NCBI GenBank assembly: GCA_035305585.1
Contig: DATGOV010000020.1
Location: forward strand, 39,325 to 103,324
Reading direction: 5' to 3'
From: Acidimicrobiia bacterium
Lineage (GTDB): Bacteria > Actinomycetota > Acidimicrobiia > Spongiisociales > ZC4RG35
Length of the DNA stretch: 64,000 bases
Part shown: one piece after another, positions 58,364-63,491 of the stretch
How the letters are laid out: every line of letters starts with the position of its first letter
Numbering within the stretch: position 1 is the first letter of the stretch
Translations under genes and position numbers: made by a program
The notes under the pieces: generated by a model
The model's database searches: none
Told to the model about the DNA's origin: nothing
What the model saw: the letters and a program-made list of their open reading frames with translations, nothing else

Positions 58364-59476
58364 TCAGTCGCGAACGATCCAGAAAAGCCGAGCAGGCTCC
58401 GGCAGGAGGTTCCGCCAACCGGAGATGGCGTCACGTGTGACGAGGAGAGCGTCGCCCGCTCGCATGACCGGGGCTTCCTCGCTGAGCTCGATCTGGACGA
58501 GGCCGGCGCTCACCATGATCAACTCGGCACCCTTGTGCACCACGGGTGGCCCGCCTGCTTCGCCGGGCCCGAGGGTGATGAGATGGGCGCGCATTCCGGC
58601 GTTGGGGTCGTCGAGGAGGGCCACGATCCCGCGGCGAGGCGGAATCCGATCCCGGCGGGCGAGCACATAGCCGGTGTCAGGCGTGTGGCCGAAGAGGTCG
58701 TCGAGTGAGACGCCGAGGGCCGAGGAGATGTTCAGGAGTGTCTCCACCCCGAGCCCGCGGTGGCCGGCCTCGGCCTGGGAGATCGCACTGGGTGACACTC
58801 CCGCCATGCGTGCGATCTCGGTCTGGGTCATTCCGCGTTCGGCCCTCAGCCGACGCAGTCCCTCGGCGAGCCGGCTGGCGGCCCGGATCTCGGTCAGCGC
58901 GATGTCGCCGTCGTCGACCTGCATGTCGAAGATCTGGCCGCGGATGGCGGGACGGCCCTCTGCTTTTCGCACGCGCAGGCGGCCTCCCGAGAGTTCGAAC
59001 ACGCACTGTGTCACGCGCTGTACTTCGTCCAGGATCCTGCCCGAACCCACCCTGGTGGCCCGCCAGTAGGCGATCGCCCCCTGGTCGAAGAGCCGCGGGC
59101 ACGTGCGGGAGAAGAAGGTGACGGCCCGTTCTTCGCCGAGTCGACGCACGAGCACATCGAGGTCGCGGACGACTATCCGGGCTCGGCGGTGGCTTCCGAG
59201 CTCGACGATCGTCCGCTCGAGCTCGAGGGGATCGGCGTGTGGTCGACCCGGACGGGCATCCACCACGTCCACCCCGTCGGGGACCACGGGGTCGTCACCG
59301 GCGAGAACGATCAGGGTCCGGGGCTGGTCACCCACGGCCAGAAACCGGTCCTCGAACAAATCGTGGATCCCTCGGTCGTCGCCAATCCACACGACGTTGT
59401 CGCCCACCAACAGCCCGCCCAGCCGGTCGTCGAAGGCCCTGACGCCGCTCGACTCTCGCTCATGTTCACCTGGCAT
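58364..59476 (-). CDS. XRE-family regulator with C-terminal cupin and an uncharacterised ~200-aa N-terminal domain
   Basis: HTH MTQTEIARMAGVSPSAISQAEAG; cupin HKGAELIMVSAG...AGDALLV. ATG 59476 is chosen because the 545-aa ORF-track version overlaps the divergent dksA-like gene. Confidence 0.75.
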   Translation of the reverse strand: MPGEHERESSGVRAFDDRLGGLLVGDNVVWIGDDRGIHDLFEDRFLAVGDQPRTLIVLAGDDPVVPDGVDVVDARPGRPHADPLELERTIVELGSHRRARIVVRDLDVLVRRLGEERAVTFFSRTCPRLFDQGAIAYWRATRVGSGRILDEVQRVTQCVFELSGGRLRVRKAEGRPAIRGQIFDMQVDDGDIALTEIRAASRLAEGLRRLRAERGMTQTEIARMAGVSPSAISQAEAGHRGLGVETLLNISSALGVSLDDLFGHTPDTGYVLARRDRIPPRRGIVALLDDPNAGMRAHLITLGPGEAGGPPVVHKGAELIMVSAGLVQIELSEEAPVMRAGDALLVTRDAISGWRNLLPEPARLFWIVRD

Positions 59477-59625
59477 GGTCTTTAGCCATGCTAATAGCGG
59501 CCCGGCATGTGACCAGGGTCGCCCGGGGTACAGTTCGCGCTGCTTACGGATCGTTGCCGCAACTCCGGCTTTGGTGTGGGCTTTGCGTCGAACCGGCTCA
59601 TTCCGAGCAGAGGAGATGATTCCTG

Positions 59626-59952
59626 ATGACCATGCCGCAAACGTCACCGGAGCCGGGCTCCGGGTTGGATCCTTCGGTCCTGGACGAGTTGCGCACTCGA
59701 CTCCTCGAAGCCCGGGACTTCCACAGGTCCCGCATCGAGGAGGGGTCTGACGCCGTCGACGACATCGCCCGGGCCATCGCTTCGCGCAGCGAAGCGGCCC
59801 TCGAGGAGGTCGAAGCCGCCCTCGCGGCGATGGAAGACGGAACCTACGGCACGTGCCAGGCGTGTGGTGAGAGTGTGGGAGAGGAGAGACTCCAGGCGAT
59901 TCCTCACGCCCGCCTGTGCGCAGCTTGCGCTTCGACCACGGCGAGGCGCTGA
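59626..59952 (+). CDS. TraR/DksA-family C4 zinc-finger protein
   Basis: GTYGTCQACGESVGEERLQAIPHARLCAACAS. AGGAG lies 10 nt upstream. Confidence 0.85.
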   Translation: MTMPQTSPEPGSGLDPSVLDELRTRLLEARDFHRSRIEEGSDAVDDIARAIASRSEAALEEVEAALAAMEDGTYGTCQACGESVGEERLQAIPHARLCAACASTTARR

Positions 59953-60762
59953 ATGAGGAAACGCCCTCCCGTTCTCGTCGTCGCACCCGGCGCCGAGACA
60001 TCCTGGGCGGGCGACGCCGAGGTCACCACCCAAGCGACGGTTGTCGCGGTCGACGGTGAGGGTCGTCTCGCCGGATTCGGATCCGAGGCTGCACTGGCTG
60101 CCGCGGCCCGAGGAGACGCCCTCCGTTTGTTCCAGCCGTTCTCGGCGACGGAGATCTTTTCCGTCGATTTGACCCGCGCCTATCTCCGCTGGGTCATCGA
60201 GAGCTGGCCTGCCGGAGGCCGCCATCCAGTGTTGGCTTTCCTGCTCCCCGACTGCGCCGCCGACGGTGTGGACCGCTGGAAGGCCGTCTGCGACTCACTC
60301 GGTGTGGGTTTCATCACCATCTCCCGTCCGGTGGCAGCTGCCGCCGGTCTCGGCCTCGACGTCGACTCGGGCGCGGCCGACATGATCGTCGACGTTCGCT
60401 CCGACGCCGCCGAAGTCGCCGTCGTCGCCGACGGTGGAGTGCTCTTTTCCCGGACCTGCTACGACCCGACCCCGTCGACGGTGGCGTCGACGGTACGCAG
60501 CGCCCTCGTCCAGATCGACCCCGACCTCGAATGGGATGTCTTGAGCGGAGGCATCCACCTGCTGGGTCGGATTCCGGGGAAGGAGTGGACCGACGAGCTG
60601 TCGAAGACCCTCGGTGTGCGAGTCGGATTCTCCTCGGAGGCGGAACGGGTCCTCATCGCCGGCGCCCGGTCCAACCTCGAGGGTCTCGAGTCGTACCTGT
60701 GGTCGGTGACGCCGGGAGTTGGCCGTCTCCTCAGAGGCGTCCTGGCCGGCTTCGGACACTGA
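59953..60762 (+). CDS. MreB/actin-fold protein with degenerate nucleotide-binding motifs
   Basis: ISRPVAAAAGLGLDVDSGAADMIVDVRSDAAEVAVVADGGVL is colinear with MreB [14 protein letters not shown]....G.[19 protein letters not shown]. Phosphate-1, phosphate-2 and adenosine motifs are all replaced. The ATG directly follows the dksA-like TGA. Confidence 0.6.
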   Translation: MRKRPPVLVVAPGAETSWAGDAEVTTQATVVAVDGEGRLAGFGSEAALAAAARGDALRLFQPFSATEIFSVDLTRAYLRWVIESWPAGGRHPVLAFLLPDCAADGVDRWKAVCDSLGVGFITISRPVAAAAGLGLDVDSGAADMIVDVRSDAAEVAVVADGGVLFSRTCYDPTPSTVASTVRSALVQIDPDLEWDVLSGGIHLLGRIPGKEWTDELSKTLGVRVGFSSEAERVLIAGARSNLEGLESYLWSVTPGVGRLLRGVLAGFGH

Positions 60763-61186
60763 AGAAGCTTCCCGAACTACGCCCGGCGGCGATGTCCACA
60801 GGTATCCGAATCTCCACGCCCTCCTTGGGCAACTGCTGTGCCGGGTTCAATGGGGACCCGAGGACGTTCCGGTACTTCTCGAAGAACGCGGTGATTATCT
60901 CCTGCGATGTCCGCGGGTCCTCTACGAACTCCGCGTCGCCCCACAGGATCACCGACTCCCAGTCGCCGCTCGACTGGTCGTAGTCCGAGACCGTCAGGCA
61001 CACCCGGGGATTCTCCCGCAGCGCTTCGACGCGGCGCCCGTCCATCGTCCGAACGCAGATGGCGTCGTCGAGCATCACGTACGAGATGGGAGTCACGTAG
61101 GGCTCACCCCGGGAGATGACGGCCAGGTGGGCGACGGGCGCCGACTCGAGAAGCCGACGGCACCGATCCACCGTCAGTTCGTTCAT
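60731..61186 (-). CDS. Pyridoxamine 5'-phosphate oxidase-family (PPOX/Pyridox_ox_2) protein
   Basis: LTVDRCRRLLESAPVAHLAVISRGEPYVTPISYV...VILWGDAEFV. Confidence 0.7.
   Translation of the reverse strand: MNELTVDRCRRLLESAPVAHLAVISRGEPYVTPISYVMLDDAICVRTMDGRRVEALRENPRVCLTVSDYDQSSGDWESVILWGDAEFVEDPRTSQEIITAFFEKYRNVLGSPLNPAQQLPKEGVEIRIPVDIAAGRSSGSFFSVRSRPGRL

Positions 61187-61218: not shown

Positions 61219-63491
<2,273 letters not shown>

Follow-up and report, generated by a model that had tools for sequence, protein, structure and literature searches.

What does an MreB-like protein with a degenerate nucleotide-binding site do when its gene directly follows that of a small zinc-finger protein of the TraR/DksA family? 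This question is raised by a stretch of 64,000 nucleotides (nt) from an Acidimicrobiia bacterium (assembly GCA_035305585.1, contig DATGOV010000020.1, positions 39,325 to 103,324; hereafter the window). On its forward strand, an open reading frame (ORF; 59626-59952) for a 108-residue zinc-finger protein ends with a TGA (59950-59952) that is immediately followed by the ATG (59953-59955) of a second ORF, in the same frame, for a 269-residue MreB-like protein (59953-60762). This abutment had been pointed out by a first-pass annotation made from the sequence alone, and the ORF coordinates bear it out. The MreB-like protein was found to belong to a family that is distinct and fully motif-dead, but of which an uncharacterized counterpart has already been noted in Streptomyces.

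Two abutting genes under purifying selection

Both ORFs are real genes under purifying selection and not chance ORFs, because the ratio of nonsynonymous to synonymous substitution rates (dN/dS), determined against two orthologues, was low for either of them (zinc-finger gene, 0.11-0.19; MreB-like gene, 0.09-0.13). The zero-spacer junction, together with the GAGG preceding the second ATG, suggests that translation of the two genes is coupled. In the closer orthologues, the spacer between them is 0, 0, 1, 2, or 4 nt; in others, it reaches up to ~50 nt. Reading through the TGA across 59626-60762 would yield a fusion of 378 residues, and the in-frame zero-spacer arrangement recurs at one more locus (L001). 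As the spacer is 1 nt in L002 and 2-50 nt at other loci, the shared frame of the two ORFs is not conserved, and thus neither is the read-through fusion. Neither protein had a match in PADLOC, which covers defense systems, and Rfam gave no match within 59300-60900. A scan for the sigma-70 consensus found no promoter at the locus; two terminator-like matches inside the coding region were at chance level.

An MreB fold without subdomain IIB

The downstream protein was recognized by the Pfam profile MreB_Mbl (PF06723) with 49.3 bits (cut-off 27) in a match confined to residues 21-167 (profile positions 20-171), and stayed under the NCBIfam cut-offs for MreB (NF010539, 47.3 versus 293 bits; TIGR00904, 32.2 versus 365.75 bits). 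An AlphaFold2 model computed from an alignment of 26 family members had a predicted local distance difference test score (pLDDT) of 90.3 and a predicted template modeling score (pTM) of 0.87. When this model was compared with the PDB by Foldseek, the 25 best matches were all MreB (E down to 7e-17; query-normalized template modeling score, 0.75-0.81), with actins and MamK following at about 1e-10. As modeled, the 269-residue protein is an MreB/actin fold, and the colinearity of its core with MreB, which the first-pass annotation had read from the sequence, is confirmed by profile, model, and fold comparison alike.

Alignment to MreB of T. maritima (1jce) and to the canonical MreB encoded in the same genome located what is missing. 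Subdomain IIB, that is, ~75-85 residues corresponding to MreB 171-255 in 1jce numbering, is gone and swapped for a three-residue loop. Subdomains IA, IB, and IIA are kept, IB being represented by the strands and the helix at residues 31-60 of the model. The earlier estimate that ~80 residues of the IB/IIB region are lacking was therefore right with regard to IIB and wrong with regard to IB. Identity to the genome's own MreB is 28% over the N-terminal half.

An exhaustive search of 1.84 billion representative proteins with a hidden Markov model (HMM) revealed a distinct family of short proteins (250-290 amino acids; about 30 clusters at 50% identity), scoring between 1e-63 and 1e-17. Canonical MreBs (330-350 amino acids) started only at about 1e-13 to 1e-16, and with their N-terminal half alone. 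Word-index protein searches had yielded only 5-7 members of the family. A profile of the C-terminal half, run across the phylum, still matched canonical MreB and added zero new members. Four residues (R125, P190, E193, and G237) are invariant in the 26-sequence family. Three other short MreB derivatives of low-GC origin (P0044, P0046, and P0066; 262-275 amino acids) keep the DLGT motif and have lost the phosphate-2 GGG; as they nest inside canonical MreB in the tree, IIB has been lost independently elsewhere.

The genome also encodes, on another contig, a canonical MreB (496 bits) with an adjacent mreC-like gene, which makes the MreB-like protein an extra paralog and not the shape-determining MreB. 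A canonical MreB is present in every genome carrying the MreB-like gene, and in none of the surveyed loci were mreC, mreD, or genes for penicillin-binding proteins (PBPs) found near the latter.

All nucleotide-binding motifs are degenerate

The nucleotide-binding site was compared by aligning the protein with the genome's own canonical MreB and with the 26-sequence family. At phosphate-1, IDLGTANT of the genome's own MreB has become VA--PGAET, and the aspartate persists only in more distant family members. None of the 26 members retains the phosphate-2 GGG or the adenosine-motif GGGA, and the connecting motif of the window protein is altered as well (Table 1). The claim of the first-pass annotation that all nucleotide-binding motifs are replaced thus extends from the window protein to its whole family; homologues with intact ATP-binding motifs, which would have argued otherwise, did not turn up among the 26. 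Judged from these motifs, the MreB-like protein would not be able to bind ATP as MreB does.

With canonical MreB/Mbl (1jce and 4czk) the protein shares the IA, IB, and IIA fold, but it differs from them in the lack of IIB, in the alteration of all five ASKHA nucleotide-site motifs, and in an extra basic tail at the C terminus. AlfA, which has no IIB, and TsaB/YeaZ, a nucleotide-free partner subunit, are precedents for ASKHA folds that work in such a reduced state. Neither has a sequence or context relationship to the window protein; AlfA retains ATP-driven polymerization, and TsaB partners an ASKHA enzyme and not a zinc-finger factor.

The tail, GRLLRGVLAGFGH, has a hydrophobic moment of 0.65, and related basic tails occur in further members of the short family. 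Its pLDDT was below 50 both in the single model and in an AlphaFold2 model of a fusion of the two proteins, for which 59626-60759 was translated with Gly in place of the TGA and an unpaired block alignment served as input. One may speculate that the tail is a membrane-targeting or partner-binding peptide.

One-way dependence on the zinc-finger gene

HMMs of both families were run on all fetched loci. The zinc-finger gene was directly upstream of, and on the same strand as, the MreB-like gene in 20 of the 22 informative loci, including relatives only 31-40% identical; on two metagenome contigs, automatic gene calls had missed it. The exceptions are a tandem pair in genome G387 and one fragment at a contig end. 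G387 (L015/L056, contig C66) carries two diverged short MreB-like genes in tandem (280 and 268 amino acids) behind a MarR-type gene and without a zinc finger; the subclade of this pair does not have the basic C-terminal tail.

The link between the two genes proposed by the first-pass annotation is thus kept down to 31% identity, but a third conserved component had been overlooked. Wherever the flanking sequence suffices, a divergently transcribed regulator gene adjoins the zinc-finger gene; of the 17 genomes in the taxonomic family that bear the MreB-like gene, 16 have this regulator. Its own family spans several families of Acidimicrobiia, usually beside a DksA/TraR gene, and is wider than that of the MreB-like protein. 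In G294 and G250, the regulator is divergently paired with an orthologous zinc-finger gene that is not followed by an MreB-like gene; three more distant genomes (G362, G035, and G322) show a looser adjacency of regulator and zinc finger, again without the MreB-like gene. Conversely, the G387 pair is the only case of an MreB-like gene without the zinc finger, the contig-end fragment aside. The dependence is therefore one-way: the MreB-like gene is almost never found without the zinc finger, and regulator and zinc finger do occur alone. It follows that the latter two form the older and wider unit, to which the MreB-like gene is accessory. Of the arguments for an actin-fold protein in the service of the zinc-finger factor, and not vice versa, this asymmetry is the strongest at hand; it also fits the earlier proposal that the one is dedicated to the other.

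The MreB-like family is rare. It was found in 6 of 401 Acidimicrobiia genomes, all from one taxonomic family, within which 17 of 201 species genomes and 7 of 38 genera carry it; it was absent from 400 further Actinomycetota genomes (E <= 1e-32). In G918, the MreB-like gene is a partial remnant, inverted relative to the zinc-finger gene.

The zinc-finger protein

The upstream protein matched PF01258 (zf-dskA_traR) with 51.9 bits (cut-off 24.9). In the PDB, it came closest to 2kq9, a DksA-like protein of 112 amino acids (1.7e-10); structures of DksA ranked next. The fusion model shows residues 16-41 and 46-70 as the two helices of a hairpin, with the C4 ribbon after it (pLDDT, 82-96). The cysteines of this ribbon (CxxC-x17-CxxC; C77, C80, C98, and C101) are invariant, and the orthologues have in common the N-terminal MT(M/A)PQ and an acidic tip, (D/E)x(x)DD(I/V). 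Where DksA has DxxDxA at its tip, the window protein has DxxDDIA at the equivalent place; what the tip does in DksA is known (see also PMC3643593). Like DksA, TraR, and YlyA, the protein has a C4 ribbon after a helical hairpin with an acidic tip, but unlike them, it has a shorter hairpin and no C-terminal helix after the ribbon. Binding to RNA polymerase is plausible from these features, and family membership and the acidic hairpin tip are consistent with action in the secondary channel of the polymerase. Besides the window protein, the genome (assembly of 1.8 Mb, about 70% complete) encodes three more members of the DksA/TraR family (contigs C33, C40, and C3; L007-L009); four such proteins per genome is a high number for an actinobacterium.

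The divergent regulator and a conserved palindrome

The regulator combines a helix-turn-helix (HTH) domain of the XRE type and a cupin domain with an N-terminal domain of ~200 residues. The latter, which has no P-loop, contains strongly conserved GGLLPGDNVVWxGD (more generally, GGLLxGDNVVWxGD), RTCPRLFDxGAIAYWR, and VQRVTQCV segments; neither as a single sequence nor as a 13-sequence profile did this domain match anything in Pfam or the PDB. In an alignment of the intergenic region from eight loci, whose proteins are down to ~35-60% identical, the palindrome TTAGCnnnGCTAA provided the only invariant columns (TTAGCCATGCTAA in the window; Table 1), and a variant, TTAGCATGGCTAA, lies at the equivalent place in G294. 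The palindrome is likely the operator of the HTH regulator. Its distance of only 6 nt from the regulator start suggests that the regulator mRNA is leaderless, or has a very short leader, and that the regulator controls its own synthesis.

Genomic neighborhood

The loci fall into two types of synteny. In type 1 (the window, L001, L002, G802, G800, and G910), the order is a sarcosine-oxidase-alpha-like gene, usually a major facilitator superfamily transporter (not found in G800), the regulator, the zinc finger, the MreB-like gene, a convergent PPOX-class oxidoreductase, a NarL-type response regulator, a GAF histidine kinase, and finally an SRPBCC-like gene. The six genomes of type 2 have the regulator, the zinc finger, and the MreB-like gene alone in common. 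In six genomes outside type 1, the NarL-type regulator and the GAF kinase are not near the module. Over 32 nt (60731-60762), the convergent PPOX gene and the 3′ end of the MreB-like gene coincide, so that a terminator would have no space between them; this overlap is seen again in relatives with identities down to 36-40% (L010 and L042).

Table 1. Features of the zinc-finger/MreB-like locus, in coordinates of the window.
Feature	Coordinates	Strand	Remarks
Divergent regulator, 370 amino acids	58364-59476	-	Pfam HTH_3 1.3e-16 (XRE-type HTH), Cupin_2 3.4e-8
Palindrome TTAGCCATGCTAA (TTAGC-n3-GCTAA), likely operator	59482-59494	.	6 nt upstream of the regulator start codon, 131 nt upstream of the zinc-finger ATG
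TraR/DksA-family C4 zinc-finger protein, 108 amino acids	59626-59952	+	PF01258; MTMPQ N terminus, helical hairpin, Zn ribbon
Hairpin tip D42-A-V-D45-D46-I-A48	59749-59769	+	DD[IV] acidic pair in all partner zinc fingers; position between predicted helices
Junction TGA/ATG	59950-59955	+	Zero spacer, same frame; GAGG 6-9 nt upstream of ATG
Short MreB-fold paralog, 269 amino acids, without subdomain IIB, degenerate nucleotide site	59953-60762	+	PF06723, AlphaFold2, Foldseek
Degenerate phosphate-1 loop A11-PGAETS-W18	59983-60006	+	MreB D-LGTANT-xV; 2 residues shorter, Asp to Ala
R125-P126 replacing MreB E-P	60325-60330	+	Connect motif EEPMAAAIG to SRPVAAAAG; Arg125 invariant in family
Degenerate phosphate-2 DVRSDAAE	60391-60414	+	MreB DIGGGTTE; GGG lost in family
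IIB deletion site	60460-60474	+	Loop 171-173 links strand 162-170 to helix 174-187; same position in all family members
Family signature DPDLEWD (residues 189-195; P190, E193 invariant)	60517-60537	+	Corresponds to MreB tPPELaaD
Degenerate adenosine motif LGRIP	60562-60576	+	MreB TGGGA; own MreB LTGGGA to LLGRIP
C-terminal basic amphipathic tail GRLLRGVLAGFGH	60721-60759	+	Invariant in close orthologues; kept in zinc-finger-linked subclade
PPOX-class (F420/FMN-type) oxidoreductase	60731-61186	-	Pyridox_ox_2 1.3e-22; accessory neighbor, type 1 only
NarL/LuxR-family response regulator	61219-61884	-	Accessory neighbor, type 1
GAF histidine kinase	61923-63044	+	Accessory neighbor, type 1

A counterpart in Streptomyces

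The pairing, which the first-pass annotation had not recognized from published work, does have a precedent. In S. coelicolor, the dksA-like genes SCO6164 and SCO6165, SCO6166 ("mreB/mbl2", one of three MreB homologues), and SCO6167 are adjacent, and their transcripts rose together in RNA-seq, SCO6164-6166 by 2.5-2.8 log2-fold and SCO6167 by 1.5 (PMC6629963). SCO6166 is annotated as a regulator of cell-wall synthesis, and its expression changes with hyphal morphology (PMC6629963). SCO6164 and SCO6165, DksA paralogs whose tip residues are altered, probably form an operon, as described previously (PMC3643593), and SCO6164 has a predicted box for OsdR (DevR/DosR-like), with genes for a sensor kinase and a response regulator divergently upstream (PMC5069765). 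The order of two zinc-finger genes and a short MreB gene, with divergent histidine kinase and NarL-type response regulator, was found in three of six Streptomyces genomes (L097, L098, and L100).

The window locus shares with SCO6164-6166 the DksA/TraR zinc-finger gene(s) directly upstream, and on the same strand, of a short MreB-like gene without IIB. The two differ in several respects. The Streptomyces protein (~255 amino acids) also lacks IB, which the window protein keeps, and has different boundaries of the IIB deletion; it retains DLGS, DIGA, and GGGA, whereas the window family is motif-dead; and there are two zinc-finger genes and no XRE-cupin regulator within 10 kb, as opposed to one zinc finger and the regulator. 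The Streptomyces proteins scored 1e-5 to 1e-10 on the HMM of the window family, that is, below canonical MreB, and their zinc fingers scored 53-69 bits on the HMM of the partner zinc fingers, no better than the unrelated paralogs in the genome of the window (47-68 bits). In a maximum-likelihood tree, the window family forms a clade (Shimodaira-Hasegawa-like approximate likelihood ratio test, 89) apart from canonical MreB, and the Streptomyces group sits on a long branch. In the best tree, a branch sets the two together apart from the rest, but with a support of 0; a single origin is neither supported nor rejected by the tree. In type 1 loci as well as in Streptomyces (L110-L112), genes for a NarL-type regulator and a histidine kinase are found no more than about 1 kb away from the zinc-finger/MreB-like genes. 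The presence of two-component genes beside both clusters may be coincidence or may reflect a common link to stress or dormancy. Of the described gene clusters, SCO6164-6166, which is co-regulated and has no explained function, comes nearest to the window locus.

A proposed mechanism and its alternatives

The reading we prefer, although held tentatively and with somewhat less than even confidence, is that the MreB-like protein acts as a scaffold with an actin fold, independent of nucleotide and made together with a zinc-finger effector, and that a ligand-sensing regulator presides over the divergent promoters. The regulator would sense a small ligand through its cupin or its N-terminal domain and control both promoters through the palindrome. 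The zinc finger would be the effector and, most likely, a factor that binds RNA polymerase, like DksA, TraR, or YlyA. Produced in step with it through translational coupling, the MreB-like scaffold would bind the zinc finger and modulate its availability or location, perhaps placing it at the membrane by means of the basic amphipathic tail. Both a physical complex of the two proteins and an effect on RNA polymerase are what we infer here. One specific form of this idea appears doubtful to us: the nucleotide-free actin fold, perhaps tethered to the membrane, would be an anti-factor or chaperone that sequesters a DksA/TraR-type RNA-polymerase-binding protein and releases it upon a signal, a device of which Acidimicrobiia and Streptomyces (SCO6164-6166) would have diverged versions. 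Such control would be analogous to that by anti-sigma factors, but aimed at a secondary-channel factor.

Several observations weigh against the scaffold reading. The hairpin helices of the zinc finger comprise ~25 residues, compared with ~35 in DksA of E. coli, and the protein missed the NCBIfam cut-offs for DksA_like (53.8 versus 105 bits) and dksA (43.9 versus 115.5 bits), which renders action in the secondary channel uncertain. The fusion model, which we do not count as support for a complex, had a pTM of 0.71, compared with ~0.66-0.67 for two undocked domains by a rough estimate, and the tail was still disordered. The loss of ATP binding is deduced from sequence alone, and AlfA, likewise actin-like and without IIB, still binds nucleotide, given intact phosphate motifs. 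According to work by Heichlinger and colleagues in 2011, SCO6166 is reportedly expressed in vegetative mycelium, and its deletion reportedly had no visible (morphological) phenotype. Furthermore, three MreB-like copies contain in-frame stops (L047 in G909, L054 in G870, and L055 in G918); the gene appears to be on its way to being lost in these genomes and is thus dispensable in some lineages.

Such stops, together with the lost catalytic motifs and the patchy distribution (17 of 201), could suggest that the gene is a decaying MreB duplicate without function. The low dN/dS, the four invariant residues, the confident and compact AlphaFold2 model, and about 30 clusters of conserved length contradict this to a degree that makes it hardly credible. 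Nearly as improbable is that the locus is left over from a type II (ParM/AlfA-like) cassette for DNA segregation or from a mobile element, with an actin motor and a zinc-finger DNA-binding adaptor. AlfA does have a similar size (~275 amino acids) and no IIB, and such systems pair the actin with a small adaptor gene, but with destroyed phosphate and adenosine motifs, ATP-driven polymerization is implausible. Moreover, MreB and not ParM or AlfA tops the fold search, the synteny is chromosomal and stable, PADLOC gave no match, and one palindrome is present instead of an iteron- or centromere-like repeat array.

Two further explanations deserve more consideration. The paralog could modulate the cytoskeleton: left with one longitudinal contact surface for MreB, the IIB-less protein would cap, or co-assemble with, canonical MreB and thereby alter wall synthesis or cell shape, with the zinc finger as adaptor or co-regulator. 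MreB is by far its closest relative in fold and sequence, canonical MreB always co-occurs with it, and an amphipathic C-terminal tail is the route by which FtsA and MinD reach the membrane. The cell-wall annotation and the morphology-linked expression of the Streptomyces counterpart point in the same direction (PMC6629963). Such a role would, however, leave unexplained both the dependence of the gene on one of the DksA/TraR family and the absence of mreCD and PBP genes from its vicinity, and we regard it as unlikely; the lack of a morphological phenotype said to follow SCO6166 deletion also speaks against it. It is likewise conceivable, though again improbable in our view, that the two proteins are co-expressed and do not interact, the MreB-like protein being a pseudo-enzyme scaffold for another partner (the N-terminal domain of the regulator or the PPOX protein) and the zinc finger acting alone. 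The occurrence of zinc finger and regulator without the MreB-like gene in G294 and G250, the lack of confident docking in the fusion model, and the overlap of PPOX with the MreB-like 3′ end in about half of the loci would be consistent with this. Against it stand the junctions of 0-4 nt and the near-absolute order of zinc finger and MreB-like gene across about 70% sequence divergence, which are typical of subunits of one complex, as well as the absence of PPOX from type 2 loci.

Implications

MreB paralogs are usually read as cytoskeletal ATPases. Here, a whole MreB-derived family has neither subdomain IIB nor nucleotide motifs, yet is maintained by strong purifying selection and linked with a factor of the DksA/TraR type and a regulator of its own. 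The practical reach of this finding is limited, as the family is rare, its hosts are thermophilic Acidimicrobiia that have not been cultured, and no phenotype is known for the one counterpart that has been studied. If the two proteins do form a complex, the actin fold would have been put to new use, partnering a transcription factor independently of nucleotide, and the third MreB homologue of S. coelicolor, SCO6166, as well as its two dksA-like neighbors, would gain a candidate function that can be tested in a genetically easy organism.

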